A stretch of DNA of 64,000 nucleotides from Macrostomum lignano. Its lineage: Eukaryota. The DNA lies in assembly GCA_002269645.1 (NCBI GenBank), contig NIVC01001197.1, forward strand, positions 1 to 64,000. Direction: 5' to 3'. Positions within the stretch are counted from its first letter, which is position 1. The number at the start of each line of letters is the position of its first letter. Of this stretch, positions 26 through 63,900 are shown piece by piece. Both the position numbers and the translations under genes were made by a program. The notes below the pieces were generated by a model. That model was given only the letters and a program-made list of their open reading frames with translations, searched no databases and had not been told where the DNA came from.

Positions 26-3000
26 CTTGCCCAAGCGTTCAGAAATGGGACTCCGACAACGGTGAAGTGGTTACTCACACCAATGCTGGAACAACGCACT
101 ATTTGCACTCTATGACATGCAATTGGCAAATTTCTGTGTCGCCAGGCAAGCAAGTAATCGCCTGGTTTACTAGTAACAAACTGTCGAGTCACGGGTATTC
201 GTACGACAGAGTGACATTATACGATGGTCTCAGTGGTTCAAACACTTTGGTCAGCGGCACTTCTATTCCGACAGAGGTCGGATACCGGTCCATCACAAAC
301 AGCATGAGGTCCGGTCACAACAGATGCCACTTGCATTCTACGGCTTTCGAATGCGATACAGCATTGCGGAGAACTGTAAGTTAGAGTTTATTCAGAGGAT
401 TAGAGGACATACACGATAGAAAAAACCTATCATTCTTTCAGTTTCCAGTCTGTGATGGTCGGAAAATTCTTCAAGCCAGCCAAGGCAAGTTTTCGCCATG
501 TGAACTCATCATCCCTAACTATTTGAGACGTATGATATGCTACTGGACCATTACCGCGCGCCATTGGATACAGTGTAGTGGCTCACATTACATCATTCAG
601 CCTCTACCCGCAATGACTATGTCAGCATATCTGAAGGAATTCGAGGCTCACCATACATCGCAAGATACTACGGACGGAGTGAATTTCAGATTGTCAGTTC
701 AAGAGTTTTCGTTTCACAGTCAAATGCGATGCTTGTATATTTCACGTCGGGTGGAACAGGCTCTGGCTTCGGGGTGAAGTACAACACAACCGAAAAATGT
801 GAGCAAAGCTTACAGTTGTAACTACATTTTTGACAAACAAGCGCAATCTAATCTCTCTTAAGTTTTGGCTCATAAACTGAGTTTTGATTAGTTAAAATTG
901 TAAAACGTGTTGCAATGCCCAATGATAGATTCATGTACATGTCCGCTTGTACCGCTTACACTATTGATGCAGACACGTCACAGTCTTGAAAAGAGTTCAT
1001 TTTTCACCATGAAGCAGCGCTTTGATATTTTTATTGACCTATACTTACCACCAGTCTGTCAAGGCACGGAGCTCCTGACCAACGACACTGAGAGCTGGTC
1101 ACCACTCGTCTGCAGGAACTATGGGCTTCTTGATCAGCTCGGACTGCTACTGGGTGATCAGAGTCTCTCCCTCAAAGCGAGTGGTGGCTCGTTTTACCTT
1201 TTTTTAACCTAACTTCCCGTTATGATAGCGTCACTCTGTATGACGGAGCCTATCGCTCAACAGTTCTGGCTACCCTCGAGAGCAGCTTCTCGGACACCAC
1301 GCGGGATTTCATAAACGACAGAAAACGTCTTGACCGTGTATCTGCGTATTCCATATAGCAGCCAATCACTCGGAATCAAGATGAAATACGAAGCTTCAGA
1401 TACCTGTGAGTTTTGTGTACATTCGGATCTGCTAAAATGTGTCTTCGAGAATGTTTAAACGTACTCACGGTCGTACATGTACATGTACAGCCTGCCGCTC
1501 CTCTCCCTGCCGCTTGTTCATTCTGGTCCGTCCCTCATCTTAAAGCTGCAATTCTTGTTGTCCTTTGGTTTTCTTGTTGCTGTTCCCTTTCCGTTTCTCT
1601 CTCGTTTGGGCTCGTCCAATCAGGTCTCTAGCCGCAGAGGCACTGATTTGCTAGCCTTCCCCCTTCTCTCTCTCTCACCCTTCAACTCAGTGAGTTTTCC
1701 CTCCCACTTCCAGCCACCACATGGCTTAGCCCCACTCAGCCCCTTTCTCATTCCACCCTCTCACCCCACGGTTGCAGTATTTACGAGCATATACACACCC
1801 GCTCTCGCCCCCCTGCTCTCTTTCTATCCTCTAACCCTTCGCATGCTTAAGTTAGTGAAAGGAAAATGAAATATTTATTAGAAATATAGAAGCGAAACGA
1901 AGTCAGCTATCCCGGTAAGACAAAGCGTTATGCTCTTCGTTTATTTTTCTATCTCCTTCTAAATTCTTTCTTCCCCTCACAGTCTTCACTCGAGCATGCG
2001 AAGCGTCTGTAGCCTCCACAAAAGTGTCCAGCTCTCTGGTGCTGCTGAGTGGTAGCCTTATCATTCGCACCTCCCTCTTGTCGTAGGGCTGGACGAGTTT
2101 CAGTAGGCTTTCTGTACGACTCAGAGGGTCTTCGCTCTCACACCTAGGCAGAAAGACCCCCTGGGCAGTCCAGTACCCTAACCCAGATCATCCCGTATGC
2201 TGTCCGCACAGACGGAAGCGGGAAAATACAACACATGTTTAATATAGATTGTACGTGTACTGATTCAGTTCAAAGATGATATGCTTTGTAAAATTACTTT
2301 CAGTTTGCGAAAGCTACAAGCTGATAACCGATGGCAGTGGTGAGATCAGCAGCCACCAAGGCGCAGGTGCATTGCCTTACATAAGAGGAATGTCATGCAA
2401 ATGGCAGTTTGTCGGTAAACTCTGGAATTCAAATCTCAGCTAACTTGATCTACTTTAACTTGACGTCAAACTCTGACTCTATTGCTTTGTACGAAGGGTC
2501 AGACGACACCGAATTAGTCACAATTCAAGGTGGCGCCACCACATGGCTACAAAGTTTTTGTCTGTGTCAAACATCTTGACAGTGGTTTTCACCACTGGAA
2601 ATGCTGCTGGAAGTAGTAACAAAGGACTTGGTTTTCGGTTGCAGTACAGCGTTGGTAATAGTGTTGGTGCGTTAAAAATGTATTGCTTAATGTTCTCTGA
2701 GATATGGTGAGTGCTACGATGCATTATTCAATCGTAACTAATGCTCCTGAAATAAATGTATCCGCAGAAGCAGCAACAACCAGTTCAAAACAGACTTCCT
2801 CAAGCACTGCACGCGCTGTTGTCAGCAGTCCAAGTTCGCCAGCAACTGCAAAAATCGTATCAGATACCAGCTCTGCTTTGGAGTCGACAACAACTGGTAA
2901 ACTGTCACAAACTGGTAGGCAATTCATTTCAAACAATTTCTGTTTACGTTCTCTGCAATACGGTAAGTGTCACGACGATTACTTGTAGCGAATGTTCTTG

Positions 3001-4620
3001 AAATATCCACAGAACCAGCAACAACTAGTTCGAAACAGACTTCATCAAGTACAGCGCGCACTGTTGTCAGCAGCTCAAGTTCGCCGGCAACTACAAAAAT
3101 CGTATCAGATACCAGCTCTGCTCCGGAGTCGACAACAACTGGCAAACGGTCACAAACGGGTAGGAAATTACTTTTAAATATTCTTTTTGTTTAAGTTCTC
3201 TTCAAGATGGTGAGCGTTACAATGTATTACCCGCAACAAATGTTATTCACATATCTGAAGAACCGACAGCAACCAGTTCAAAGCAGACGTCAGCAACCAC
3301 AGCGCGCGCTGTTGTCAGCAGCCCAAGTTCGCCAGCAACTGCAAAAATTGTATCAGATACCAGCTCTGCTCCGGAGTCGGCAGCAACTGGCGAACTGTCA
3401 CAAACGGGTAGGAAATTACTTTTAAATATTCTTTTGTTTAAGTTCTCTTCAAGATGGTGAGCGTTACAATGTATTACCCGCAACAAATGTTATTCACATA
3501 TCTGAAGAACCGACAGCAACCAGTTCAAAGCAGACGTCAGCAACCACAGCGCGCGCTGTTGTCAGCAGCCCAAGTTCGCCAGCAACTGCAAAAATTGTAT
3601 CAGATACCAGCTCTGCTCCGGAGTCGGCAGCAACTGGCGAACTGTCACAAACGGGTAGGAAATTACTTTTAAATATTCTTTTTGTTTAAGTTCTCTTCAA
3701 GATGGTGAGCGTTACAATGTATTACCCGCAACAAATGTTATTGACATATCTGCAGAACCGACAGCAACCAGTTCAAAGCAGACGTCAGCAACCACAGCGC
3801 GCGCTGTTGTCAGCAGCCCAAGTTCGCCAGCAACTGCAAAAATTGTATCAGATACCAGCTCTGCTCCGGAGTCGACAACAACTGGCAAACGTCACAAACG
3901 GGTGGGAGATTCATTTCAAACAAAATCCATTAAAGTGAAAAGATTTTAATGTTTGCGTACATGCACACTCCTATATAGGGTTTTTATTTTTTGGTAAATA
4001 TCTTTGCAAAATTACACAAATCGATTCATTCCTGATTTTTCAGAGCCGACAGAATCTCTTCCGACTTATATTATCGCCTTAGCAATCGCTGTTCCCTCGG
4101 GTGCGATTGCATTTACTGCTGCAATAGTTGGAATTGTCATCCACAAGGTTTTGAGAAATTATGAAGTGATGCTTTAAGTTCATTAGTAAATCAATTTTTT
4201 ACACCATTTGACATTGTATATTGATCATTTCAGTATCTTCAGAACCTGAAGCGACCCAAAACTCACACAAATTCTTATACTGAGGTAAGAACCTTACAAT
4301 GATTTCGGCTGTCGTGCATTCCCGCACTTCACTAAAATATCCTAAAAGAAACTACTTGAATTTTGTTTATCTTTAACAAAAATTGCAGGGCAGCGCCGGT
4401 CCATATGCACCTGGGACAACGTCAGCGGGAGATTTAATTATCATAAAAATATTTCCTACATATTTTGTCATCTCGACCACGGCTTTCAGTAAAATCCTAA
4501 ATATCATTCCTTCAGATTAAAGAGGACTACTATCTGGAAGCTGACAACGCTGCACAGAAGAATCCCAATGAGGACGACTACTACGACTATATTGGCATGA
4601 ATCCGCAAATAGACCCATAG
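26..4620 (+). pseudogene. 3' part of a CUB-domain/mucin-stalk/single-pass membrane receptor gene, CUB exons frameshifted
   Basis: Four CUB-like exons with AG/GT borders (~26-375, 449-798, 1055-1405, 2304-2654), e.g. MTCNWQI..YDRVTLYDG..GFRMRY, each needing a frameshift. These are followed by five S/T-rich exons, a TM exon 4044-4147 (YIIALAIAVPSGAIAFTAAIVGIVIHK) and tail exons ending IKEDYYL..EDDYYDYIGMNPQIDP* (4516-4620). Confidence 0.75.
2700..3905 (+). repeat. Five ~247-bp tandem intron+exon units, each with an S/T-rich mucin-like exon
   Basis: Unit recurs at about 2761, 3008, 3255, 3502 and 3750 (TTSSKQTS..TARAVVSSPSSPATAKIVSDTSSAPES). Copies 3 and 4 are nearly identical. Each exon has an AG acceptor and a GT donor. 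Confidence 0.9.
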
Positions 4621-10639: not shown

Positions 10640-12830
10640 GTTCACTCGTCCACAAGTTTTGGTTTGCGCATAGTTTTGTTTTGTGCCACCTCTGTGGTCT
10701 AGCTCTTTCCTTTCCCCGCGGTTTAAGTAAAGTACACAGAGCTCTAATTAATAAGTCGGTCAAAGCCAACAAGTTAGTACTGTATTTAATGAGCTTGTTG
10801 CATGCTGCATTCCAATGTAAGAATGTAAAGAATTTAAAGAATATAAAGAATGCTTATTTAAAGGAATGCAAAACCGGCATGTTTCAGTCAGAAAAGCATG
10901 CAGTTTCCAGATAAAAATTTAAGCCTCTCTGTTGGTGTCAAGTAAATAAACCGTTTAAATTCTTTGCTCAGGTTATCCGCAACTTTTGTGAATATTATAC
11001 AAGCTACATCTTTATTGGCTGTGCTCTTAACTGAGTCTTTTTAGAATTACGGATTCTGCTCCAAACTATTTTTTCATTTTCATAGAGCAAAAGCAAATTA
11101 TACTCTCGTACCTTGTTTGCTTCTTGAGCACTCCTTGTGTTTGCGCTCAAAATCGGCTAAAATACGAGACCCCAGTGATCAAATGCCTTGAAACCACTTT
11201 GAAAAGTTCTTTCATCTCTTTCCTTCGACCCATTTGAAGATGCTTCGTTTAATTGTTTGAAAATTTCTGTGTAAGCCTGGTTGAGAGTAAAAGCATTGGT
11301 GCACGCTAGGAGAAGGCCTAGCATCCGTGTTTCTAATATTTTTTTTTCTATTTTGTTGAGTATAAAGCAAGCCTTTCTTGCCACTGTGTTAATCGTAAGG
11401 GCATTTAAGATGGGGGTGAGATGGTTGGCTTGGTTGGGATGTGGTGCGTGCGACGTTGGTGTGTTGGGGGGCGGGCGCTATTTAGTCCAGTCTCTGCTTT
11501 GTGACGATATCTGGTCCGAGTTCGCGTGCTGACGGGCTGCTATTAAAGTAGTGAGTAAACACACAGTTAGTGGTGACGATAACTGACGGCGCCGATAATT
11601 CGATTACGGATTATGTATATTTGCAGGTTACACATGTAGTGGTTATTGCTGATGCTAACTGGTAACAAACAATTGCAGTGTCAATGGAATGGCTTCGAAG
11701 ATGACCTTAGTGGGTAACACTACTAAATTGAAAGCGATCTTGAACTACTGTTTTTTCAGTGTTTACTAAAATCAATCAGTGTTTACTAAAATCAAATGAC
11801 TGGCGATAGGAACAGCAGCCGCACACCACGCTCAGTCTTCTCCGAAGCCACAGAATTCAAAATGTTAAATATAACTATTTAATGCAGTAAAACAAAGCAT
11901 TGCTTACTATTTTCAATAAACATAAAAGTGAAACCAATTGATATAAATAAAGTACATATTAAATATTTTTTAGTAGATATTAATCGACGAACTGGGAGAA
12001 TAAAAGAACCACCAACGTCACAGCTTGTGCTTAAATTTTTTTCTGTCGTTTTATCTTCGACCATTCAATGCTTAGCAACAATAAGTTTTGGATCGCACAG
12101 GGGTTTTGTTTCCGCCCACCTCTGGTCTTGCGCTTTTCCTTTCCCGCGGTCAAAGTAGAATTGCACCGAGCTTTGATTATTAAGTCGGTCATGACCATCA
12201 TGTTTGTACTGCATTTGATTAGTTTGCTGCTGCATGCTCGACCTTTATTTAAAAGGATGAGAAGCCGCCATGTTTCATTCAATAAAATATGCAGCTTTCA
12301 GAGACGACTTTAAAGTCTGTCTGTTGGTGTCAAGTTATTAATTAACCGTTTAAGTTCTTTGTTTCATCAGTTCACAACTTTTTATGAATATTATACAGAC
12401 TATATCTTCAATGTATGTGCTCTTAATTCAGCAATGAGTCTGTTTAGAACTACGGATTCTGCTCAAAACAGTTTTCCAAGTTCATAAAGTTTAGCCTTGC
12501 AAAATGGTCTCAGTTTCGTAGAGCAATAACGAATTATACCCTGTTTGCTTCTTGAGCACTAGCTACTTGTGTTTGCGCTCTCAAAATGCTGCAACACGAG
12601 ACCCACTAGCTATATACGAGTGAACAAATGCCGTGAAAACCCTTTGAAAAAATATCTCTTATCTTTTTCCATTCGACCCATTTGAAGATGCTTCATTCAA
12701 TTGTTTGTGAATTTCTGTGTAAACCCTGGGTAAGCCTGGGTAAGAGAAAAAGCATTGGTGCACGCCATGAGAAGGCTGGCCTAGCATCCGTGTTTCTAAT
12801 ATTTTTTTAGTATAAAGCAAGCCTTGTTGT
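10640..12830. repeat. Diverged direct duplication (~10640-11400 versus ~12070-12830) of an unidentified decayed element
   Basis: Collinear shared blocks, e.g. ccacctctg..ttcctttcc(c)cgcgg..taagtcggtca, ttcgacccatttgaagatgcttc, aaagcattggtgcacgc and gcctagcatccgtgtttctaatatttttt. Confidence 0.75.
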
Positions 12831-21900: not shown

Positions 21901-24900
21901 TAAGCAGCCACAGAGTATTCCACTTGGAGAGCTCTCCTTGGATACTCGCAGCTTGAAAAGTGATTCTATTACTTGAGTCCCTATTCTACAAGTTAATTTT
22001 ATTGCAAGCCGTTGAACCCGCGGATTTTGAACATGTGGAATTCCAATCCCCGTAACAATTTAGCATGCATTCTAAAATCTGAAGTCATACTCAAACAAAA
22101 CTTTGTTAATAGTTAGGATAGAGGTAATCATAAATAGAGTAAATTCGTGTAAAATTAAGAGTTGTGAGGCAAGCGTTGATTTCATTGGCTGGGGTGCTGC
22201 GCAGAATGTCGGGCAATGTCTTTCGAAAAAATGTATAGGAAAACTCTGGCCTCTAGCTGTCTCTGCCTCTACATTTCTCGGATCCATCGAAACTTCTATC
22301 TTCTCTTCTGTTTTCTCTCTTCTCTCTTTCTTTCATCTCTTCTCTTCTTTCCTATCTCCTCTCTCCCCTCCCCCCTCTTCTCTTGTATTTGCCTCTCATC
22401 TCTTCTCTCTCTTCTCTCATCTCATCTCATCTCTCATCTGTCCCTCTGCTCACCTCACCTCTGAATCGAGGGGAGACGGGCGAGAGGGAAAAGGGAGAGA
22501 GGGAGAACACAAAAGAGAGATTGAAGAGGAGAGAGAGAAGATAGCAAATATGAGAGATGAGAGCAGAGAGGAGAGAGAGAACAGAAGAGAGGAGTCCATC
22601 ATGGGGCTAAGCCTGCTAGAAAGGAGAGGCCAAGAGCTGCTAGCTTCTGTTTTTACAGGTACAATTTCAGTTTTTTTGCTGTAAAAAACGTAAAAAAATA
22701 ATTTTTTTCGATTCCCAAAGGGGCGGAATTGAGAATTCCCGAGTTTTTTTAGGAAAATGCATCACTTAACTATATTAATGAGGGCGCCCATTTTTTAATC
22801 TTGAAACCGCACATTTGGCTTCGATGCGCTTTTTCCCCTACTGTCAGTAGGCTAGCTTAGGATTTTCTATCAATTCTCTCAGCTAGGCTGAATTCTAGAC
22901 TTTTTTGACATTACTAGTAATTATTTTAGGAAATAAATATAATTCCCTTAGGATTTTAATTTTGGGTTGTTTACGTATTTTTGAAGGTCAGGCTGTCTGG
23001 GTCTGAGGCGGATTGGATTGACCTCCAACAGTCTAAAAAGGCGACACTAAGTCTGGGAGGAATGCTTTTAATCTCCTTCTGACCGCCACATTTGTGACTT
23101 TTCACTATTTTTAATGATTTATTGCGGTCTAGCTGTCACTTTTGGCTCCAGCCTGTCTGGGTCAAAGATTTCTTCCCAGCCTCCTCCCCGCTTGCTCTAT
23201 ATTTTCTTTCTCCTTTGATTTATGGGCTTTTTGTAGTCACTTTTGGCGCCAGGATGTCTAGACAAGTGACTTTTATTCGGTTTTGCTCATGATTTATGAC
23301 CTCACCTGTCAACTTCCCTGGGGTCTAAAGGCCACCTGGTGGGCAGGGTTTTGGGGTTGAGCTCAGCCAATCAAAGTCGACCTGTCCGCCCCCGGCTCTA
23401 CCAATCAGAATATTCAGCGCTGATTTTAACAAAGGCTCTCAGTCAATAGGAAAATTCGGCGCTCATTATAACAAATCGACCGCGTGAGACCTATTAAAGA
23501 CGGAATTTCGGCCCGCGCTCGACAACCCTAACGTCCCCTAACCCTTGGACATTTTGGGCGGAGCTCTCTCTCGCTCGTCCTTTTGACTTTTTGGAAAAGC
23601 TCCTTCCAGGACCTTCGGCCTCCTGTGCCTGGCCCACGTCCTGATGTTCGCCCCCCTAAGTTCTAGTCGTCGTCTCTCATCAGCCTCGGCTTCAACAGTT
23701 TAGTTCCCCCTGAGCAGCATCGTCAGTGACTTCCCGGTCGTGATCTAAGGGTAGCGACGGCAACCGGCAAGTGAAGAGTAACGGCTTAGATCGTCATCAG
23801 CATCCCGTCCGAGCGCTTCGGTCTCGTAGAATCCTTGGCCACCGGCAGATAGGTCCTCTGATTGGTTGGGTGAGAGGCTCTCTTGAACTGCTTAATTGGG
23901 TGCACCAACCCTTCATCTGACCCTTTCCTAGGTAGTCTGATAGGATTTGCACTTTTTTACTTGTCTTTGTGTACCAGACTCGAGGCAGAAGTTTCATTTA
24001 ATACTGAAAGTAGCTAATCGCTCCGACTCAATCTCAGGCGTTTAGGATTATGGATTAAGTGAAAGTTAAATCTGGAAGTTAAAGACTCAGTGTTTTCTTT
24101 CTTTTTCGCAATGCCAGCTGAGATTAGTGGTTAAATCCACAGAATATTCTGTGGTTAAATCTAGTGGTAGAGGTCAGAGTGGACAGGAAGCGGCACAGTT
24201 CCCAGTCAATCAGTCGATATAAGAAATCATGATAGACATGCAAACTAAGAGCCAAACCGGTGCTTTCGCGCGGTCTCAGGCAGCTAAGCGGCTAAAACGA
24301 GTTAAATGTTAGTCTAAAGTTCTCCAAACGCGACAATACACCTACATCATCTCTATCTGTCGACGCGTTAACACATTTAGTGCCAAAAGCGTGCAGTTAC
24401 GTGTACTTGTACATGTACTCCTGGAATTTGGTAATGAGGTAGTACATTTAGCAGTGTATGAAGGCTCGCCAGCACAAGAGCCCCCTGCAGAAGTCTTCTC
24501 TGTCCCTGCATGGCCTATGCGATCTTAGTCCCAGCAGCGTCCCTTCTATTCGGCTATGACTTCGAGATTTAGAGTAGTATATACCATACAAAATTGCCAG
24601 CAAACCCTTCTCAGAATTCAAACGATTTAACCCTTTATCAGTGTGAAATGACTCATTTCCCTTCATTATCGCTCGTCTTCACTTCGCTCAACTCGCTTCG
24701 CTCATCCTCGCTTCATTTCGGTCAATCAACTCATTTCACACTTACAACGATTAATTCTCATCGAATTCTGAGAATACGCTCTCGTCGTTCGCTTCGGTTT
24801 GCTGGCAATTTTGTATGGTACTCAAACCCTTCCAACACTTCCAACACTTCTAACACTTCCAACTATATCCAACTCTTCTAATACTTCCAACTCTCTCCAA

Positions 24901-48900: not shown

Positions 48901-51900
48901 TGCCCACCAAAACTTATTAACCTATCACTTTCATCTACGATCCTAATATAAATTGATTGAACACTATATTGATTTAAAGGATAATATATTGGGGTTTGGG
49001 GTGCAACAATCATTTTCTCTCCAATTGGAACAGCAAGAAACGGGATTGAATAAATGATTCCTCGTTGAACCAAAACTCCATTATCATCTGTTATATAACC
49101 ACCGTTTGATATATGTCGGTTGTTATATTAATTGTATTGACACCACCCTCAATGTTTCCCACCGTATCGCCGGTGCTTGATGTGGTAACGATTCGGGAAT
49201 TAAATCCGAGTATGGTTCTAAGTGAATTTGCAATTGTGAAATCAACCTGATATCCAGATCCTAGTGATAGTTTGAATCTGCCAGATGGTAAATCAACCCC
49301 TATAACAATCGCACCTGCTACCCAATCGCCATTAGCTGGTAATTCTCCTTCTATATAAGCATTCAAATCGGTATAGCTATAAGCCCCCGGATTAACACTA
49401 AATGTCGTCCAATTGGCTCCTGAATCTTTAGAATATCTAAATTGATTATTTGTTGCATTAATTAATTGTGGCATATTGAAAACCGAAAATAGTATCAATC
49501 CAATTTGATAACTTAGGCTTTGATCGAGTTGTAACGGATCGCGCAATTGAATCCGTTGCTCGCTGCTTGTCATTATAAACTGTAATGTTGTACTAAATTT
49601 TGATTTAGTTCGATCTACCAATTGTTTTATAGTGTCTAAATTTGCAGCCATTTTTATAGTGGGAAAGCTTTAATCCTCGTCCTCATTATCTTCTTTTATC
49701 AGATCTGTTAAGATACGATTTCTCCTTTCTAACCTAGGATTGATATATATATGTTTGTATTGACTATCATCCCAAATTTTTTTACACATACTTTTAAATG
49801 GTTTTGTATCCAACCCAGGATTAAATCTCGCGTGTATATTTTGTAAATCATAGTTATCTAAATCAAACATTACACAACAACTTGCATTCTTTTTTATAAT
49901 CGAATCTAATTCTCTAAAGGACTGTGTTAGATAAAAAGCTCCAATTCCATCTCCTCTGCCACTAACAAAAATTTCCTTTTGCAATTCTTGATCGCCGTCG
50001 TTAAAAAAATCGTCAAAAACAATTAGTGTTTTATCATTCTTTGGAATTTGATCATATGATAATCGGGTTGATACTCTAACGGTTGGGGAATTTTTGGATC
50101 GAACCTTTGGTTCGCGGACTCCGTCCGATAAGTTTTCTGGATCTTCTGCGGTTGTTTTACACAATCCTTCAATGTCATCGAGTGTAAATTTTGGTTCGTT
50201 ATCATCCTCATATTGCTCATATGCTCTTAACATTCCAAACAAGACATCTTTTTTAGTTTATGTTTTAATCCATGTTTAAGAAATTCATAATATTTAATTC
50301 GTGGTTTGTTAGTATATATTAATAAATTATTGTAGTCTAACATTCCATCGGTTGTTAACAGGTCATAAACAAAGTGTGTTTTTCCTTTACCCGACCCACC
50401 AATTACTAAACAAAGAAAAGGATCATTTGGAAATATCTTATTATGTTTTGCTTTTACCATTTTTAAAGATATAATTTAACTAATCTTTTTCTACGGGGGC
50501 GTCCTGAACAACTGTGCCGTCGGCTTTAGCAATTGACATAAACTCCTCTAATAACAATACGTGGGCGTCTACTGCCTGATTTCCGGTTTTATTAATCTCC
50601 AACATATAATTCAAACTAACATTGGCTACATTTTCTTTCTGTGTGGTTAGATCATGAACAACCATGGGGTGAATGTTTAGAAACTCTGCGGGGGTATATT
50701 GAGGAACAGCATACGCTTCATTTTTGACATAATCCTGATAATATTTTATCAAATCATTGACATTATTATTTCCAGTATTTAAATTAAGAGGTCTTGCAAC
50801 TGGATAATGTTGATCATCAACCACTAGGCGGATATCCTGGAGATTAAACTCATTAATCGCTGAAACCGCGTTGTCGGTTGCGGTGGCTGCTTGTGCTGCT
50901 ACGTCAGCCGATTGAAGCCAATATAAATCCCCGTTGGCTCTTTTGCTAATTCTGTTTGTTATTTTAAACCAAACAAAAATATACCTCACGCGGCGCTTTG
51001 TTGGTAAGATTTGCCACTGGAAAAAATCCTGATTGTTATTAATAGTTCGCATAAAGTGGCGACGATTCAAATAAAATACTTCCTGATCTACCAATAACTG
51101 ATCATTGATGTGTTTTAAAAGCGGTGCCGTTACCTCAATCTTTGGCACGACTAATTGAATTGAAACTATACGAACCGCTAAATCAGTTGAAATTGAACTT
51201 CCAAAAAGTATCCTGGGCTGATATCCTCCAGATATTTGCAACTGAACCCCAAATTTTAATCCCTTCCATACGCGATTTGGTGATAAGAACCCAAATAGTG
51301 GAAATATTGAAAAGTCTTGCTCATATGCGCTTGCGGTTGTTAAAACCGCGACTGGGAATTTATTTTGACGGTCTATGAAACCGGTGTTAATATTTTTGGT
51401 GTTCGATAGGGTTGTTACAACCGGAACTATATTGTTATTAAGATAATTAATTAGAGCGGCGGTATCTGCGCCGGCTGCTGGTGCTACATTAAGAAAATTT
51501 ATTGCTCTACCGTCTCCCTTATCGGCCATCCATCCAACGCTGTCACCAACCTGTTTTGATAAATATGTATAATTTAAATGTTTCAAAACTCCATTAATCT
51601 CCGCTGGGTTTGTTGATGTCTCAACCTCGGCTCCGTTAACAGATAGTTGTGCTTGGGAAAAACATTTATAAAACCAATCATTTTCTATAATAATACCAGC
51701 GCGGTCAGCAATATCTGGGGCTGTAAGTGCCGTTCCATCATTTCTGGTATACAACCACCTAACGCGGAAAAACGCATTTTTCAAATCCAATATGCTAGAG
51801 GTTGCACCAATGTCAAAAGTTAGGGTTCCCGTTGTAAAGTTATTTGAATTATCGCATGTTGGTGCGGTAAAATTTAAATCTCTTGCCCTGACCTCATTGA

Positions 51901-54900
51901 TATACTGGCGATGCTTTTTAAAATGAAATTTATCACTCCATATGGTTTTTGTTTCAGCCATTTTTTTAAGTTAAAAAAGTTTTTTATGTTAAAAAATGAG
52001 TCAATTTATGGATGTTGATGAAGAGTTAGCGATTTATAAAGAGAAGCAAGGATATTCTGATTTTGTTAGAAACTTACAAAAAAGAAAGTTAGGAATACAG
52101 TTAGCTGGAGAAAGATTTGCTGCTCCTTTTGTTAATCCGATTACGGGGAAAATTAGTGAACTAGAAAAAACAGATAAAGACCTTCTTGAAAAAATTGCTA
52201 AGAATACGGAGCCAAAAGAGGATGAAATTTTGAATGAGCCGCCTGCTTATGATTTTGATCAAGCACTATTGAGAGTTGCAGAGATTAGGCGTGCAGAACG
52301 GGGTGGAGTTGATGAATATCCGAGAGCTGCACCACAAAGTATTGCTGTGATGGATTTAGGTAATGATAATTATCGAATTGGTGGAGTTGATAAAAATCGG
52401 AATGAACTATATACAGAATTGGGTGGAGCATATAATAGTATTATGAACCCTAGGGTAAAATTTAACCCTGAATTATATACTAGGGATGAATTAATAAGTG
52501 CTAAAAAAATTTATGATGAGTTAGGAGTAAGAGCTGCTAAAAATACTAGTTTGTATAAAAGGATTGTTGGTTCTATAAATAACAAGCGGGCTGTTGGCGA
52601 AGGATTTAAAACTCCGCGAAAATTTGTTTTAGCTGCTGCGAAAGCTGCTGGACATACAGGAGTTTAGTTAAATTTATTTTTTTTTAATGGCAAATACGAT
52701 AAAAGATTGTCTTTGTAAACCTGTTTATGATAAGGTTGGTTCTGACAGAATACTAAATAAAATATTTCGAGATGAATTAATAATTGCAAACCGTATTAAA
52801 GCAATTCAAATGAGACTTGGATATGTTTATGAATTATTAGCTATTGAACATTTTGGTTTTGAAAAAATAAAGAAAATTGATTTAATTCATACCGAAAGAA
52901 AAATTGCGTTAGAGTTGAAATCTTCTGATAATACAGATAATTCATCAAGTCGATTTAGAAATATTCAAAAGTTATTAGAATTTAAATATGTTAATCCCGA
53001 ATTTGATTTATATTATATTTGCATTAATAATACTACTAAAAACCCAATCAAAAAGGTATTTGATAATGGTGTTATCTTGTTAACTGGGGAATTTGCTTTA
53101 ATTTTTTATATGGTGATCAATATTTAGAAATTATTAAATTGATAGAAACATGTTTTTTAAACATTAAAAATGAACCAACTCGAACGAAGTTCGCGACCCT
53201 TTGGGGCGATTGTGTATGAAGGAGGATTTTTAGATGTTCAAAAAGGATTAACAAGCTTACCAAGTGTTTTTACTACTGGAAAATATACAGGTGAGTTACA
53301 CCTGCCGTCACATCAATTCACGGGTGGAGCTCGAGCTGTGCCCGAGTGGTAGAAGCAAAGCTACTGCTAGTCACTATTAGTGGCAACACCAGCCGCTCAC
53401 TCAATCTCCTAAAGCTTCAAGTACCACTTCAGTTGAGAAATCTTCTGAAGGAACACAGGTAACTCCTGTTCCCAATGGTAACAAGCTTGAAGATCTATAT
53501 GGACAAGCGTGAATCGAAAACCTAATCTCGTATTGCTTGAGTATGGTTGAGATGCAACGACTGTACGCTGGTGGGCTTGAAGGATTTAGTCAATCCTTAT
53601 GATAGCTTAAGACACAGTCTACTCCTTTGTGAAAGCAAAGGTATAAAGGCCGGGTTGACTCGACTCGATCTCCGATTAAATCCTGACAATACTCCAAAAG
53701 CCGATTCAATTCCCATTAACGGCATTGATTGGTTAGCATATTATCATGACTTAGCATACAGAGATGCTGACAAGAACTCGCCCGAGGAAGCATTAAGATT
53801 AAAGCATGAAGCCGATAGAAAAATGATTGAAGGATTAGATAATCTACAGGGCTTATCAGTGAGCCAAAGATTAACTCGGTGGATGGTTAAAAAGATCTTG
53901 CAGTCCAAAGTTAAATTTGGTTTGGGAATTAATTACAACCAACATGGAAATAATTGTGTCGAGTGCTTGTTGTTAAGTGGTGGTGGGTTAAGTTCTGATG
54001 AGGCAAAGGTTCTTCATAAAGAATACCGAAAGCCTAAATTTTATAGAAAAATCATGAACTTCAAAAAGAATGAAATTTGGTATGCTGATTTAATGTCAAT
54101 GCCAAACGAAAGAGGATATAAATATATCTTAACCATACTAGATGGTTTTACTCGATACGCGTGGGCTGTTCCTTTGAAATCCAAAAAAGGAGAAGAAGTT
54201 GCTGCTGCTTTTAGAAGCATTGGAGAAAAAAGTGAAAGGTTGTGTGTTGATGAAGGAAAAGAATTTTACAATCCTCATATGTATAAATTATATCATTTTG
54301 AAAAAGGAAAAGAAAGGATGAAGGACGCGAATGGGGAGTATATTAATAAAATTTATTCTATTTATGGCGAAAGCAAAAACGCATTAATAGAAAGATTTAA
54401 TCGAACTTTGGGGAAGAAATTGTGGTTTCAGTTTAGTCTTAATGGTAACCAAAAGTGGGTAAAAATATTACCAGACGTTGTAAAAGATTATAATAATTCA
54501 TATCATTCAGCTATAAAGATGACTCCTCAACAAGCTTATAACAACCCTGAAAATGTTAAAGTTACTTTTGGAGAGTTTGAAAAAAATAAAAAGAAACCTT
54601 TTAAGGTTGGTGATTCTGTTTATATCTATAAATGGAAAGATAAGTTTGAAAAAGGTAGAAAAGGATATTGGAAGATTAGTGAAAAATTTACTATCAGTAA
54701 AGTTTTAAATACAAATCCTACAACCTATATCATTGCTGATAAAGATGGTGAAGAAATATTGGGTTCGTTTTATGAGAACCAGTTACTTAAAGCTAGCTAG
54801 ATTTTTTAACATATCAATATTATTTTTTTCAAGTTCATGTTTTAATTCTTCGTCTGTTAAACTATTTTTTATTAATGTAGAATCTGAATATTTGAAAGTT

Positions 54901-57900
54901 TCAATTGTTTGTTGAAGTTCGGTATGACCAAAATTGAATTTAAAAATTCTATAAAAGTCTACGTTATTATTTAACTCATTATTATTCAAATATTTGGTAA
55001 TTTAAACTTCTATGGTGGTGGCTTCTCTATATTTCGTTTTTGGGAATTCATTTACAAGCGCTTCAATTTCAATTTGGGTTAGTGGATATATTTTTACTCC
55101 TCGAATATTTTTGATTTCTACAACCCTATCAAAGAGATAATTGGTTAGTTCTATTTGGTTGTGTTTTGGTAAATTATATTTAATAATATTTTTTATTGGA
55201 GTAGCATATTCTTTATATATAATATCGCGATTACTTATAAAACACTTTGGTGGGAATAATGCATAACCTCCATAACTATTCAAATATATACTGAATTTAA
55301 CTATATCAGAATCCTCTTCGTTGGGATAATAACTTCCCCAATACCTCATGAATGAATCTCTCTTTTTTATTCTTTTAATATCTAGTACTTCAATTTCAGA
55401 TGGTGTTAATGGATATATTTTTATTCCTTTATATATTACTTTTTTTATTAAACCATCGATTATCTTCTGTTTTAGATCTCTTAACCTTTGATCAATTTCT
55501 GATTCCATTTTTATGGATATATTTTATATAGTTAATCGTACCTTCGGTACGCAAACTTTGTTTGATTACTTGAGGCAGCAAGGTAATAATTTTTTTATAA
55601 CAAACAAAAACAATATTATTACTATTATAGTTACTAATATTATTATTGACATTTGTTCAACTGTGATCAAACTTAAATTTTCGTTAAGTTCATTAACTGG
55701 CACGTTTCCGATGTAAGAATAATTTACCTTCATTTTTTAGTTATATATTTTTAACAATAAATGTCTGAATCACTAGTTTCATAAGAACTATTTGTTGATT
55801 CGGAATCTGTTGATCTAACCTCCCAATCCTCAGAATTAAAATAATCTCCAAGTTGAAATATTAACTCACCCTCTTGTTCTAAATCATACAAACCATCCAA
55901 CTCTAGGGGATAAAGTTTTAGTTCAGTTTTGTCTTCATATTTTAAATAAACTTCATCAATTATTCCATTCAAAATGTGCTGTTTTATTATCTCTGAATTT
56001 TTAGCAACAGTCTCAAAAGTATCACTTACTGAAAAGGTGTAAACTCGGTTCATTTTTAGTAACAGAAAAAGACCCTTCGCGCCTGCGGCGCGGGCGGCGG
56101 GTTAGAGAGTGTTAGAAGTGTTGGAAGTGTTGCAAGTGTGGGAAGGGTTTGAGTACCATACAAAATTACCAGCAAACCGAAGCGAACGACGAGAGCGTAT
56201 TCTCAGAATTCAATGAGAATTAATCGTTGTAAGTGTGAAATGAGTTGATTGACCGAAATGAAGCGAGGATGAGCGAAGCGAGTTGAGCGAAGTGAAGACG
56301 AGCGATAATGAAGGGAAATGAGTCATTTCACACTGATAAAGGGTTAAATCGTTTGAATTCTGAGAAGGGTTTGCTGGCAATTTTGTATGGTATATACTAC
56401 TATTTAGACAGCTAAAAGACACTAGATGGCAGGTAAGTGCAGTGCCTCACTAGTCGGAAGTCCGATTTCGATAGCTCCGGTTTGGTGAGCCGTTGCGCAC
56501 GGACTGGTGGCAGCGGGTTAGTTAATCTGTAGGCTAGCTAATCTCTTCCTTTCAAATTCTCCCTGCTTGTCTCTCGCTGTCTTCTCTTAGCTATAGGACC
56601 TTGCTGCTCGCCCACAAACTAGCTACCATGGGGCTGACCATCTGACAGGAGTGAGAGGCCAGAGTTCTAAGAGATTCATTTCTGAGTTCTAGGCTACAGG
56701 CTTAAAAAGGCCGAACCCATCACTATGCTATATATTCTGTATAATAAAATACAAAGTTTCTGCGCCTACGCTCGTACCATGCAAAAATAATGCGTAATTT
56801 ACATAAGTCAAGCTCCAGCATAAATATTTAAGCGCCTATTAACGGACTATTGAGCAACAATGCCAAAATGATAAAAATAGCCACAAGATAATAAAATAAT
56901 ATTATATTAATAAAAATAAGCACAAAAAGCCTAATGAACTGAGGCATAAGGACCACAGAATATACACACAATGCCGATTCGAGCATTTTTGTTTAAAAAA
57001 TCGGTACAAGAATTAAAATCACATCAGCCTACTCTTGTTGTCTCACGATTTCGCGGGCAAGACGGCCTAAGGAATCGTCAGTGTGTTGCCCGCAGATTTT
57101 GTCTATGGCATAAGCGTAAACGTTTGTAACGCAAGAATTTTTTGTATTTTTTGTGATTAAACTTGAAAAGTACAAAGTGAAACTTATGAACATGGCATTA
57201 AAAGTACAATCCGTGATGGCCTTGAATCCTCGTTGGTCTCCAACGGTTCGCTCCCTCAACTGGAAACTCAAACGCAGGACGCACGAGTAGGTTTCATTGC
57301 TCAGGCAAAATTGCTCATTCCCAATGACGTCAGTCGCACGTGTCTCAATCATGTACCTGTGCACGCTGGCTCTGAAGCCCCGGATCGTATCCGGTGCATA
57401 TGTCTTAGTCCCCACGGCAGGATTTCCTTTCAAACTTACATACCAGAGGCGCAAATAGCTGTCGACATAACGCAGTGGCATGCGCTCAATGTCCTCAGGC
57501 AGTTTCTTCTCGCGGAGGAACTTCTTAAGTCGTTCAATGTGGTTCCGAGTAGTAGCCAATGTCGAAGGCGACTTTGAGGATGCCTCGGTGTCCTTAACGT
57601 TTTGAAGTTCTTTCGCATCCAAGTCTCGTAGCGAACACTCCGGATCAATAGCGGAATTCAGGAATTCTTCGACCTCCTCGTGGTCCAGGACCGGCAGCCC
57701 AGTGAATTGATCTACCGTTGATTCTACATGCATGGACAGTCGAGATATAAACTGCAGCTCAGAATTAGCCAGGCCACTAATATCGCCTGTTGCTATCTTA
57801 CTGAAATTGATCATGTTGCCGTCAGAATAAGCTATCAGTGCAGCTAATCTCAGCTCTAGTCCGATGCCTCCACGTCTCTCTTCACTGCAGCTGTATGAAC

Positions 57901-60900
57901 AGGCTTTAGGGGCTTTGGACATAGACGAATTCTCAGGGCAGCGGGCACACAACGACATTTACGAAAAAGGAAAAGGAAAGGTAAGGTTTTCACTTAACTG
58001 AAAATGAAGTTCAGTCTGAGCTTTTCTGCGCAGCATGGCTGGAAAATCCAGACTCCAGTGCGCAGCCTATGGATGCCCAAACTATGCCTACAAGTGCCCT
58101 CCGGACACCCGATTTCATCGATTTCCGTCAAGCCGCGAGAGGTGAGTAAACTTATTATATGAGGGGTCTTTCAAAAGTTCGTAGAGAAGCCATCTCCCCT
58201 TAAACATATGCCCTTGAAAATTTTCAAGTATTATTCCATATACGGTATCTACAGAGAATAAGAAGTGCACCTACATTGAAGGCTGGTTGCTTTTCAAGCT
58301 ATTCAAATCTGAGGAAAAGTGCGAGGAGTGCCAGCAGTCGTTAAAAGGCGATGGCTCGGGAGAGATGCGCTTCCTGCAGCTCAAGAACGGACAGGGCGGG
58401 ACTGGAAATCTGATCATTCCCAACAAGGCAGTCATATCTGCAGTCTGTCAGATGGAGCGCACCTTTACGACAATTGACAAAGAGCTGTTCGTTCTGAAGG
58501 ACGTGAGCAAACGGCTTCAGGAAAAGTTCTTTCTCATTGTTCTTGCAAATATTCAGACGCACAGCTCGGATCACGGCGAACGCTGTGCTAAGGCAATGGC
58601 CAAGTTGTTTGCCAGACTTCGCCTGCATCACTGGTGCAACAGTCAGAGGACGCTCGCTCAGCAGAGAAAGTGGGGCGTACGACAGGAATAAATAGAGCTG
58701 AAGAGAGGAAGAAGCTGATGCGATTAAATGCTGTTTAACTGTAGTTTGACTGTGATGCGAATGAATTCTGCTTAGCTGTTGTTTGTTGATGATGCGAATT
58801 GCGAATGAATTCTGTTTAACTTGAGTTCTTCATTGTTTGGTTTGTTTGGATGATAAACTACAAAAAAATGATAACATTTTACATTTTGTCCTCCAGGTTA
58901 CTTATTATTCTTCGCTAATTTATACTACTGGCCATAGACTTCACAACAAGAGTAGTGCACAAGAATTTTAATTCGGCTTCATGGAAATCGCTCGATTTGG
59001 CATTCTGTGTATATTCTGTGATAAGGACTGTTATTGCCACCTAGTTGAATTAGCCTAGCAGGGCGGTGCCTGTTCCTAGCGCTCTCTCTCTCTCGCCCGC
59101 TCTGTCCTAATCAATAGCATCAATAGCGTAGCAATGTACATGTTCATGAATGTACGCATCGTTCACTGTCGCCTAACAAATTTTTATATATTGGGCCCAC
59201 GGCCATATGGGGCCTTAAGCCTTTCGTTTCGCGCTCACACTGCCGCCTTCACTATCGCAGTCTTTACAGTGGCATCGCAAGCAGAGCTTACCCCTACGGT
59301 TAGCCACAATGGTGCATTTCATCTCCCTGCCACCGCCTGAGCAATTCAGCACAAACACTGATCAACAAAACATCTCTAAACGGTGGACCGTGTGGGCCGA
59401 TCGCTTCCGCGACTTTATCGACGCATCCGGAATTACGGCCGAAACTCAGAAGTGCAAACTGCTATCCTACACGGCAGGCAGGGAGATCGCCCAAATCGTC
59501 AAGGACCTGCCGGACGACAAGACAGACAGGCTCAGCAACTTGCTGGCCGCTCTTACAGCACACTTTGACGAACGCAAAGAGTATCGTCTTCGCCCGCTAC
59601 CAGTTCAGACTTTGCGTGCAGCATACTGGAGAGCCAGTGGACGCCTGGTACGCTAGACTAAAGGCAGCTGCTGAAGCCTGCGAGTTCTCCACCCTGAAGG
59701 ATTCTCTCATTAGAGACCAGATCGTCGCAACTTGCTGCTCCGACAAGCTCAGACGGCGACTGCTCCAGGAGAGAAACATCGCATTGAACGATGCTCTCAG
59801 ACAGGCTCGCGCACTAGAAGCCGCGGAAGAGCAGGCCACAGCCATGGAGAGCAGCAGCAGCAGCATCGCGGCCATTCACAAGTCGGCATCAAACCAGCGC
59901 AGAGACCAGCCACAGCCAAACGGCCAGAGACTGACATTCGCCTCCAACACCACCTGCTACCGCTGTGGAGAGCGCGGCCACAGCAGCTGCGGCGCCGCGA
60001 AAGGGAAGACCTGCTCGTCATGCGGCAAGCCCAACCACCTCGCAAAGGCCTGCAGGCAACGCCGGCAGCAGAACTCTTCCAGCATCAACGTGGTTGCAAA
60101 AAACACAGACGGCAGCTCAATCTATGTCTCGCCCGACAACCTCACCGAAGAAGCATTCACGATACAGACGCCGGCTGCGTCGTCAGGGCAGAGATCGGCC
60201 AACATGCGCCTGCAGATCGAAGGGAAAGAATTCAACGTGCTGGTCGACAGCGGCGCGAGCTGCAATGTCATGAGTGAGCATAACTTCCAACACCTGCAGC
60301 ACGTTCCCCTGCGTGGCGCCACCCAGCAGATCTTCAGCTATGGCTCATCAACACCGCTGCAAGTGCTTGGCCTTGCCGATCTAGCTCTCCGCACCGACTC
60401 AGATGAGCTACAAGCCCCGTTCTTCATCACCAAGGACAGTGGCATCACTCTGCTTGGGCGCACCACGGCCTTCGACATGGGAATCCTACACATCCAGCAG
60501 CCAGCCCGACAGATCAACGCTGTGAAACCTCGTGACAGCGCCGAATCCTCGACATTGAAGAAGCTACTCGCCAAACACGACCAAAATCTGGACAACGACC
60601 TACAACCAGACTTACGGTTAGGCAACATACTTCGCGAGTTCCAGCCAGTTTTTGAAGGCCTTGGTCGGGTCAAGGACGTTGAAGTCGACGTTCGGCTGCG
60701 CCCCGAAGCCGTGCCAGTGTGCCATCCACCGTCCAGGATACCCGTCCACCAGCGACAGGCCGTCATCGACGAGCTACAGCTCCTGCTAGATGAAGGCATC
60801 ATCGAGCGCGTGCATGGGCCTTCACCGTGGGTCTCCCGGATGGTTGTCGTGCCAAAGGAGTCCGGTGGCATTCGCATTTGCCAGGATCTTCGCAATGTGA

Positions 60901-63900
60901 ACTCTTTTGCCGTGCCGGAAAAGCAGCCGATCCCGACCTTCGAGGAAATCACTGACGACATGGCGGTCTCGACCGTATTTAGCGAGTTAGACATCACGAA
61001 AGCCTTTCACCAGATCCCCGTGAGCCCGGAGTCCCGCCACCTCTTCACCTTCAGCACCCCGCTAGGCCTCATGCAACTCACCAGGCTCAGCATGGGTTTC
61101 ACCAACGCGTCAGAGGTGCTGCAGAGAGTCATGACGGGAGTCCTCAACGGCCTAAATGGTGTCAGGTGGGCCCACGAGGATATCACGGTCTTCGCGCGCA
61201 ACATGGCCGAACACAACAGCCGTTTGAAGGCGTGCCTCCAGCGCCTCAGAGATTACGGGATCACCCTTAACCCCGATAAGCGCCGTCTCGCCCAACCTTC
61301 CATCGAATTCCTCGGAATGCGCATCAGCGCTAGCGGCGACCAGCCAACAGAGGAGAAAATAAAGACGCTCAAGGCCTTCAAGGAGCCGACGAACACATCG
61401 GAGCTACACTCATTCCTTGGGCTGGCAACCTACCTCTCAAGGTTCATCCCTAACTTCTCCGACCTGGCTCAACCGATGCGAGAGCTGCTCAAGAAGGGTC
61501 ACGTCTGGAGCTGGACGGACAAGCAGCAAGAAGCCTTCAAGCAAACTTGGGCCGCCATTTGTTCAGAAAACATTCTGGCCTTCTTCGACGTCAACATGGA
61601 GACGGAGGTGCACGTGGACGCCTCGCCGGTCGGCCTCGGCGCCATCCTGAGCCAAACGGACAAGAGAGGAGTCCGCAGACCTATCGCCTTCGCCAGCAGA
61701 TCTCTGACGGCCGTCGAGCAACGGTATGCTCAGATAGAGCGGGAGGCACTTGCTGTGAAGTTTGGCTGCCTCCGATTCGAGCACTACCTCAGCGGCTGCC
61801 CAAGGTTCACCATCGTGACAGACCACCGCCCGCTGGTACCACTCTTCCAGCCGGGGTCTCGGCCGCCGCCCAGAATCGAGCGTATGGCACTGAGAGTGCA
61901 GCACCTCAGCTTCAACATCATCTACCAGCCCGGGCCGCAGAACCCAGCCGATGTGCTCAGCAGGCAGCCGCAAATGCAGACAACCGACAACCCGGGCGAA
62001 GTGCTCGACCGGCAGTTCATCAACGCCATCGCCCTCGGATCGACGCCACAAGGTCTCAGCTTCGAGTCAATCAAGCAGGCGGCCAGGCTCGACGGTGTCA
62101 CTCAGGCAGCCATCTCGGCACTTCAGACCAACCAGTGGACCAGCAACGACCATGAGCTCCGTGCGCTTGCCTGCATCCGGCAAGAACTGTCGGCCCACGA
62201 CGGCGTTCTGCTTCGCGGTTCTTCGATCATCGTGCCAGCGAGTCTTCGGCGAGTAGTACTCCAGCTGGCGCACAAAGGCAATCAGTGCTGGCGGAAAACT
62301 CTAGACCGGCTTCAAACGAAGGTGTGGTGGCCAGGCATGAGGATCGACTGCCAGGTCTTCGTGCAAAGCTGCCTCGCCTGCCAAGCAACGTCGCCTAAAA
62401 CGACCAATCCGCCACCTCTTCAGCCCTCGCAGCTCCCCGACGGAGCCTGGCTCGTCCTCGGCATGGACTTCTACGGTCCGGTGCAGGACAAAATGCTGCT
62501 AGTGACAACAGATCTTTACTCAAAGTTTCCAGAGATCAACATCGTCAGTTCGACCTCCGCAGAGGCTGTGCTGCCACACCTGAAAACTCTCTTCAGCAGG
62601 TACGGCATCCCACAAGAAATCATCAGCGACAACGGCCCACCCTTCAACTCTGCAGAGTTCCACAACTTTCTCGCTGAGCACAGCGTCAAGCACCGCCGCA
62701 TCTGCCCGCTGTACCCGGAGGCCAACGGAGCGACCGAGCGCGTCAACCGATGCGTCAACAAGGTCGTCAGGGCGGCCATCGCCGAAGGCCGCAGCTGGCG
62801 CAGTGCCCTAGACGACTGGCTCCTTGCATACCGCGTCACTCCTCATTCGGCAACCGGAGTCGCGCCGGCCGAATTGCTAATGGGCCGGACCTTCAACGAC
62901 ACCGTCCCGTCGGCGCGCCCCTCGCAGCCCGTGTACCATCATCGCACACAGCTGACCCAGCGACACTCGGCCTACACCAGAGCGATGGCCAGGGACTTCA
63001 ACCGTTCCCGGAGGGCCAAGGCCTGCAGCATGAGGCGGAATCAGCGAACAAAGACTCAGAAACCCTTCGAGGTCGAGCCCTGGACCGTCGTGGACAGGCG
63101 AGGTGACTCCTACGTGCTGTAACAGGGCGACCGCACCTGCACTCGACACCTGACGCACATCCGCCCGCTAGTGGCGGCAGAGGGCGCTGCGGCGAACGCG
63201 GAACCGACGCCTCCAGATTGCGGCATTGCCTAGCGGCCGCATCCCCGCGCGGCCAAAGACAAGCCAATCAGCTACAAGGATTGATTTGGGGTTGGGGCTG
63301 ATTAAGGACTGGAACTATTGTACGAGTACTTCGATGACTGTCATTCGAGCTTTTATCCTCTCTTTGTTTCTTTCTGCTTTGGGAGAAGTGTTATTGCCAC
63401 CTAGTTGAATTAGCCTAGCAGGGCGGTGCCTGTTCCTAGCGCTCTCTCTCTCTCTCTCTCGCCCGCTCTGTCCTAATCAATAGCATCAATAGCGTAGCAA
63501 TGTACATGTTCATGAATGTACGCATCGTTCACTGTAGCCTAACAAATTTTTATGTATTGGGCCCACGGCCATATGGGGCCTTAAGCCTTTCGTTTCGCGC
63601 TCACACTGCCGCCTTCACTATCGCAGTCTTTACAAGGACCACTTTCTAAAAATATACGTGTACATACAACGATTGGAACTGTCTGCTTTCAGGTGTAAAT
63701 AATACGTGCGGCACGATCAGCTATGCATATTTATCGAACGTGACAGGAGTAATCGAGAGCCACAAGGGCTACAAAGCCATAACCGAATCAGAGCCGCGTA
63801 TTATGTCAATATACGCGCCCAATTTAACCTGTCTGTGGATACTGCCCAAACGCCTTGGGTTCTACATACATCTCTTTATTAAAACCTACTACCTTGCCAT

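Follow-up and report, generated by a model that had tools for sequence, protein, structure and literature searches.

The Maverick locus

The window analysed here is the whole 64,000-nt stretch of Macrostomum lignano contig NIVC01001197.1 (assembly GCA_002269645.1, positions 1 to 64,000, forward strand). It carries an integrated Maverick (Polinton) of a poorly sampled lineage. Our main subject is a predicted self-excising group I intron in the PLA2-integrase gene of this element, together with the putative homing endonuclease encoded directly upstream. The Maverick spans 31,829 nt (24573-56401). Its inverted repeats (24573-24873 and 56101-56401) differ at 10 positions over 301-nt arms, and there is an additional 52-nt perfect inner arm. 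The termini read AGTAGT and a 6-bp target duplication, ATTTAG, lies on either side, so that both ends and the duplication are present, as the initial annotation had it. The ends of the element and the features around the intron are as follows.

24567-24572, +, left target-site duplication, 6 bp
24573-24960, +, left terminal inverted repeat with AGTAGT end
52687-53127, +, free-standing PD-(D/E)XK (Eco47II-like) nuclease, putative homing endonuclease; the frame is longer in most sisters
53170-53325, +, exon 1 of the PLA2-integrase fusion gene, located by motif, ending F-T-G
53326-53649, +, group I intron, IC1-like, with P1, P2, P2.1, P3-P9 and P5abc; candidate 3' ends at 53648, 53649 and 53657
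53650-54800, +, exon 2, the remaining PLA2 domain and a retroviral-type integrase
56062-56401, -, right terminal inverted repeat
56402-56407, +, right target-site duplication, 6 bp

The window copy has decayed and belongs to a large family. The flatworm genome assembly (G000) holds more than 100 matches to this family; with the left end as query, 311 candidates came up, 40 of which were scored, and these yielded 72 matches. A Wnt exon of G000 shows 99% identity with a protein labelled Macrostomum lignano, which points to this flatworm or a very close relative as the host; searches for bantam and mir-124 gave no match and carry no weight either way. Eight paired sister copies were fetched: five have an end-to-end length of 15,961-18,923 nt and the rest are 11.3, 24.7 and 25.7 kb; the 6-bp duplications are found in all four sisters in which both ends were read. 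Each core gene has a long open frame in several of the eight sisters (the counts are unlabelled), and sister pPolB frames reach 1205 amino acids (aa). The intact sister copies that the initial annotation proposed to look for are at hand as unbroken natural relatives of 16-19 kb. As a Maverick, the window element is a new yet ordinary family member.

A group I intron in the PLA2-integrase gene

The PLA2-integrase gene is interrupted, inside the PLA2 calcium-binding loop, by an intron of ~324 nt, a length measured against natural empty alleles. This segment had been taken for a 329-bp insertion; it is not specific to the window copy, and an intron occupies the same PLA2 site in all eight fetched sisters. 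Exon 2, searched against G000, brought up 500 candidates; the 150 that were scored yielded 135 family matches (G000 contains redundant sequence, and the matches were inspected in part). The empty alleles of the window family are exactly three places in G000 that read F/Y-x-G-P-G-T-R-L-D. The 63 distinct copies fetched, a sample biased by the queries used, comprise 22 with the core of the window intron (type A), 37 with a second core (type B), 3 that are empty and 1 unclassified. An empty copy encodes a 424-aa protein in which PLA2 (PF08398, above cut-off) is fused to the integrase, and both of the empty-allele open reading frames (ORFs) examined match PF08398 above cut-off as well as rve.

The window row served to draw the intron structure, which was compared across 19 chosen intron rows. 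The P1 U.G pair at the 5' splice site is present in all 19, and a position in the exon shows covariation with the internal guide of the intron. Over 65 helix pairs and 19 rows, 95% of the cells pair and 24 of the 65 pairs are altered on both sides; the covariation value is 0.347, compared with 0.147 for shuffled alignments (0/500) and at most 0.076 for slid ones. Because the structure was drawn on a single row and most of the changes fall between the two types, these altered pairs amount to few independent covariation events. The core helices P3-P7-P8 and P4-P6 are in place, with the conserved G-binding pair; P3, P6, P7 and P8 are 100% paired, with compensatory changes (P4 was judged by eye and is uncounted), and compensatory changes within a type occur in P2, P3, P5b and P5c. 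The fold of the window intron has a z-score of -3.0. The presence of P2, P2.1 and a P5abc with an A-rich bulge suggests subgroup IC1. The position of the intron is fixed by the natural empty alleles, and the ribozyme core covaries.

The RF00028 model matches positions 53261-53641 with 42.9 bits (E 1.7e-9), which is under the 50-bit gathering cut-off. Scores above 50 bits were obtained for a type B sister (65.8), for copies of a second Maverick family, family C (72.7-91), and for a metagenomic contig, L166 (80.6); three further type A/B loci gave no match at E<=0.01. Types A and B form a mosaic: 71-74 of 78 positions agree in P5abc, and about half in the core (~65/134). The types are also scattered over the integrase tree, on which type A requires 11 changes, at least five of them forced. 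The dN/dS ratio is 0.06-0.16 in exon 2 and 0.30-0.39 in exon 1, and purifying selection acts on both exons.

A putative nuclease outside and inside the intron

The ORF at 52687-53127 belongs to a group of proteins in which the motif E..ID..ELK is invariant (10/10 sequences), and it resembles restriction-enzyme clusters of the Atlas (0.90-0.92). In the window family, the nuclease lies directly upstream of exon 1, in a slot that is taken by an HNH-like ORF in other copies. A different arrangement is found in family C, to which all 28 scored RF00028 matches in G000 (of 29,353 rough candidates) belong. The integrase of family C is ~60% identical to that of the window family and its intron occupies the identical PLA2 site; here, a homologue of the nuclease (~60-64%) sits inside P2.1 of the intron, placed between 12-bp inverted repeats at one locus (L056). 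The nuclease adjoins the intron core in 28/28 of these loci, and exon 1 lies upstream in 26/28. Thirteen of 14 further family C loci that were fetched are empty, read through the PLA2 site and show no nuclease. The nuclease is thus free-standing in the window family and located within the P2.1 loop in family C. The JGI metagenome contig Ga0224502_10072777 (L166) has the same composite layout, with 40% identity in exon 2, and at least six of nine metagenomic homologues of the nuclease continue into a translated intron core. The dN/dS of the nuclease is 0.29 among free copies, 0.42 among intronic copies and 0.15 in one free-intronic pair.

In family C, at L056 among other loci, the frame of the intronic nuclease extends into the ribozyme core, reaching 237 aa.

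Giant-virus relatives of the intron

A motif search of IMG/VR for the intron core yielded 124 loci, from an estimated ~240. The best of these cores are ~70-75% like the Maverick cores over 110-250 nt and lie in or beside giant-virus genes for the major capsid protein (MCP), VLTF3, RNA polymerase and Hsp70. The HNH protein of the slot matches 16 of the 124 loci, some of which look like duplicates, and in 8 it is located between the P3/P4 motif and P7. None of the 124 core-motif loci encodes the PD-(D/E)XK nuclease or a PLA2-integrase. Searches of IMG/VR with PLA2 exon 2 and with the nuclease found no relative either; one distant, uninterrupted PLA2 did turn up there. Giant-virus MCP and VLTF3 had no match in G000, where control queries were equally silent. 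We infer that the intron and the nucleases may stem from a gene pool of giant viruses and Polinton-like viruses (PLVs).

The HNH-like ORF itself (L097:819-1385, and many sisters) is related to ORFs in group I introns of giant-virus capsid genes.

Proposed splicing and homing, and the alternatives

These sequences are best read as a self-splicing intron accompanied by a homing nuclease, a system of which three states occur: empty, free-standing and intron-embedded. On balance, we consider it probable that the window holds a decayed Maverick whose PLA2-integrase gene contains a group I intron predicted to excise itself and likely to home with the adjacent PD-(D/E)XK nuclease. Two-step splicing initiated by guanosine would remove the intron from the mRNA, and this excision would restore the PLA2 domain that is presumed to be used for virion entry. 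The nuclease would cut the empty PLA2 site, and recombinational repair would copy the intron in while Maverick genomes replicate together.

Several observations weigh against this interpretation. Relative to the empty alleles, exon 2 begins with a stretch of different length in all eight type A rows; splicing at the homologous 3' site would therefore hit a stop, and another site would be needed. Two nearby Gs keep the type A frame, and of these the downstream G has the stronger P10-like pairing (-10.9 versus -7.2 kcal/mol). A 3' terminal G is present in 19/19 type C introns and in 6/26 of type B, the other 20 of which end in A; a natural precedent is the ND5-717 intron, which splices in vivo without a terminal G (PMC6545197). 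An AAAA-ATG at 53823 could start the integrase without splicing. The contigs of four runs, compared with a type A reference, contained unspliced ends and no spliced junction, in an assay that was insensitive: it covered contigs only, the RNA status of three runs was guessed, and the likely DNA control run also missed the empty alleles. A single 77-nt joint in one contig was discounted, being away from the intron ends. The window intron has one P4 mismatch, and Rfam scans found nothing, either over the whole window at gathering level or over the element (32 kb) with a limit of E<=1, so that such an intron would escape routine annotation. The nuclease matches PF09553 below cut-off (E 2e-5 to 3e-4) and gave nothing significant against PDB sequences. 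The intron is present in 28/28 nuclease loci with PLA2 adjacent (30 fetched) and the three empty alleles have the HNH form; with only three empty alleles in the window family, this link between nuclease and intron is not significant. Finally, the scatter of intron types over the integrase tree is also compatible with ordinary recombination.

At 53651-53655, just past the homologous 3' site, type A repeats five guide-pairing exon bases, and a long P10-like pairing follows. One can conceive of a second round of processing catalysed by the ribozyme.

One alternative accepts splicing and attributes the spread of the intron to general recombination only, the free nuclease being an unrelated passenger or having lost its homing activity. 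It would account for the slot upstream of PLA2, where either the nuclease or the HNH-like ORF accompanies both type A and type B, and for the mosaic of P2 and P5abc between the types (P5abc 73/78 identical, the core ~65/134). Against it, family C and L166 encode the nuclease within the intron, at the identical site; the nuclease is under purifying selection, and an empty site accompanies it in 0/28 of the copies that bear it. We regard this explanation as unlikely. Still less probable is that the intron is a dead relic, with PLA2 inactive or supplied in trans by the rare empty alleles and the integrase made from an internal start. The non-G ends of 20/26 type B introns, the ambiguous 3' end of type A, the internal AAAA-ATG and the failure of the insensitive contig assay to reveal spliced RNA are all in line with such a relic; yet many compensatory changes, some of them inside a single type, have preserved the helices, and both exons have low dN/dS in intron-bearing copies, although some of that divergence may predate the gain of the intron. 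The notion of an ordinary nested insertion or a microbial contaminant, to which only the sub-threshold RF00028 score of the window intron lends anything, has a negligible probability and is refuted by the shared site in 8/8 sisters, the precise empty alleles and the covariation of the full core; as to contamination, contigs C506 and C67 bear intron-containing Mavericks along with Wnt genes.

Beyond the probable homing intron of the window family, a bolder scenario can be sketched, to which we give tentative credence, well short of even odds: a homing cycle that is live among Mavericks in a bilaterian, an intron and nuclease derived from giant viruses, a ribozyme that processes a chromosomal protein-coding transcript, and virophage-like replication beside a giant virus. 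Group I introns do occupy many chromosomal copies of one protein gene in this flatworm. If PLA2 splicing is conserved, animal Mavericks would be under selection for a virion-entry enzyme; if homing occurs, Maverick genomes would have to encounter one another and recombine as free DNA. Either result would inform the question whether animal Mavericks are real viruses and depend on giant viruses. A live cycle would mean that both stages of the making of a mobile intron have been caught in one genome. Given the three allele states, the collaborative-homing model could be tested in a eukaryote, and the nuclease is a candidate for a new family of Eco47II-like homing nucleases.

Other genes and the decay of the window copy

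Besides the PLA2-integrase gene and the nuclease, the element contains the following genes.

25177-25587, +, small putative core or membrane-active protein, function inferred without a family match
25598-27315, +, pX-like core gene, split by a solo long terminal repeat (LTR) and frameshifted; PF05829, E 1.3e-5, above cut-off
27342-39851, +, pPolB, protein-primed family B polymerase; PF03175, below cut-off on fragments
39822-40166, -, small ORF, family not recognised
40541-40867, +, small Cys-motif ORF, longer in sisters
41022-46017, -, conserved ORF of ~220 aa, interrupted by an LTR retrotransposon
46347-48227, -, fibre-like gene with one in-frame stop; PHROG tail-fibre matches, E 5e-5
48238-48675, -, putative adenain-type cysteine protease, by motif, without a database match
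48864-49651, -, putative penton, by position only, frameshifted
49670-50460, -, A32-like packaging ATPase, frameshifted; PF04665, E 2e-3 to 4e-3, below cut-off, Walker A visible
50480-51961, -, major capsid protein, double jelly-roll by fold model, open frame of 493 aa
51996-52667, +, conserved ORF of 223 aa, family not recognised
55002-55508, -, variable ORF, absent in eight full sisters
55751-56101, -, small acidic ORF

Modelled from a 39-sequence alignment, the 493-aa ORF forms a double jelly-roll (pLDDT 84.5, pTM 0.85), as had been proposed for it; the single-sequence fold reached a pLDDT of only 30.5, and the alignment-based model was used instead. The best structure matches in PDB are viral, namely the capsids of mavirus, iridovirus and Sputnik (E ~1e-14, ~10% identity). 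PF21738 is matched by 25 of the 39 aligned proteins and not by the window MCP itself. Only four representatives at E<=1e-30 were found among 1.84 billion, and the closest relatives are metagenomic proteins with 51% and 42% identity.

The initial annotation held that all core genes are present and that the copy gives an almost complete ancestral genome of a probably undescribed lineage. With respect to the genes, this applies to pPolB, the integrase (PF00665 in Pfam, below cut-off on fragments), MCP and the ATPase; the penton and the protease are assigned by position or motif only, and neither gave a match in sequence searches (Pfam; PDB sequences, nothing significant). The ORF at 48238-48675 is one that we likened to adenain protease by a His/Asp/Gln/Cys motif. 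The near-completeness does not survive inspection: besides its two insertions, pPolB carries two stops and changes frame seven times, the penton, ATPase and pX genes are frameshifted, and the fibre gene contains a stop, while the MCP and integrase frames are open. With several genes frameshifted, the window copy is a fossil. The lineage is indeed poorly sampled, as the few MCP representatives indicate, but because unbroken sisters exist in a large family, the window copy is not a unique route to the ancestral genome.

Deletion derivatives of 3-4 kb bounded by the terminal inverted repeats also occur (L109, at G000:C393:168308-172388, and another on G000:C1040); L109 retains the 3' region of PLA2 and pX. 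Among 16 gene starts (25177-55508), AAA precedes the start codon in 15, mostly as TAAA(A) and downstream of AT-rich stretches, which we take to recall the late initiators of large viruses, or merely an AT-rich context.

Nested insertions and flanking sequences

Four insertions, all of them ordinary nested mobile elements, are specific to the window copy.

25877-26640, +, solo LTR (TG..CA, 4-bp duplication) of a family abundant genome-wide
29039-29911, strand unassigned, solo-LTR-like element, 4-bp duplication
31073-39116, -, DNA transposon with CCCAC ends, 2-bp duplication, 686-aa ORF, 54-bp tandem array and a Mariner helix-turn-helix remnant
41447-45783, -, LTR retrotransposon with a 1266-aa gag-pol, LTRs with 2 mismatches over 207 nt, 5-bp duplication

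With their own target duplications, these measure 764+4, 873+4, 8044+2 and 4337+5 bp, so that the annotated sizes of 768, 877, 8046 and 4342 bp were exact, and the insertions are missing from every sister spanning the respective site (6/6, 7/7, 7/7 and 8/8).

The LTR family of 25877-26640, also seen at L001, L005, L014, L017/L018 and L169, has five insertions at differing sites in four of eight sisters. Exclusive targeting of Mavericks by this 764-bp LTR was rejected, with 1 of the 20 top genomic copies in a Maverick, where it sits in the protease gene; the family is possibly enriched in Mavericks, without being exclusive to them. Outside the element, window positions 59024-63634 hold a second young LTR retrotransposon, whose pol frame spans 1272 aa, and positions 56954-59020, where 36-nt inverted arms enclose a 309-aa ORF without a Pfam match, are probably a small DNA transposon. 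Two repeats lie in the left flank (2733-4020 and 10918-12808): a tandem array with 4.6 copies of a 248-bp unit, and an old direct duplication of ~1.4 kb.

Comparison with known systems

The element shares with animal Polintons/Mavericks the terminal inverted repeats with (AGT)2 ends, the 6-bp duplication, pPolB and the integrase, a double-jelly-roll MCP, the ATPase, parvovirus-type PLA2 and pX-like genes, and a size of ~17-18 kb. Adintovirus-like animal Mavericks have PLA2X-bearing virion modules (PMC8502044). In contrast to animal Mavericks, where PLA2 is fused to pX, it is fused here to the integrase, and close relatives of the window MCP are few. Vertebrate Mavericks that are intact have been reported to lack introns (PMC8097293), unlike the present element with its group I intron in the PLA2-integrase gene, and introns go unmentioned in the excerpt of PMC11131425. 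According to a 2024 review, metazoan group I introns are absent save in non-bilaterian lineages and five sharks (PMC10964413), and nuclear group I introns have been described as confined to rDNA (PMC3679873). We found no report of a group I intron in an animal Maverick in a literature search whose coverage left out most subscription papers. The intron-nuclease system appears to be new among animal Mavericks; similar introns are known in protist PLVs and giant viruses.

Nuclear IC1 introns of rDNA, the Tetrahymena type, have P2, P2.1, GAAA loops and a P5abc in which there is an A-rich bulge. The Maverick intron shares all of these features, but it resides in a protein gene and has a short 3' end without P9.1/P9.2. 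In protist PLVs, RF00028 introns of 309-376 nt occur in an integrated element; they are confined to three protist groups, the cryptophyte case being in a small gene upstream of MCP (PMC12220804). Those introns have no annotated endonuclease. The present one resides in the PLA2-integrase gene of a bilaterian host, and a nuclease is linked to its site. Giant viruses contain homing introns (in Bodo saltans virus, PMC5871332, and at IMG/VR loci) that have related cores, protein-gene hosts and intronic endonucleases, and likewise include ORF-less introns served in trans; they differ in that the nucleases are HNH or GIY-YIG rather than Eco47II-like, and in their host genes (MCP, VLTF3, RNA polymerase, Hsp70).

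A conceptual parallel is the collaborative homing of phages (reviewed in PMC3984707), which has also been raised as a hypothesis in PMC11296320 and 10.64898/2026.10.13.758929. There, too, a free endonuclease lies beside an ORF-less intron, and the composite intron is the proposed end state. In contrast to the phage systems, both states of one putative nuclease coexist here in a single eukaryotic genome.

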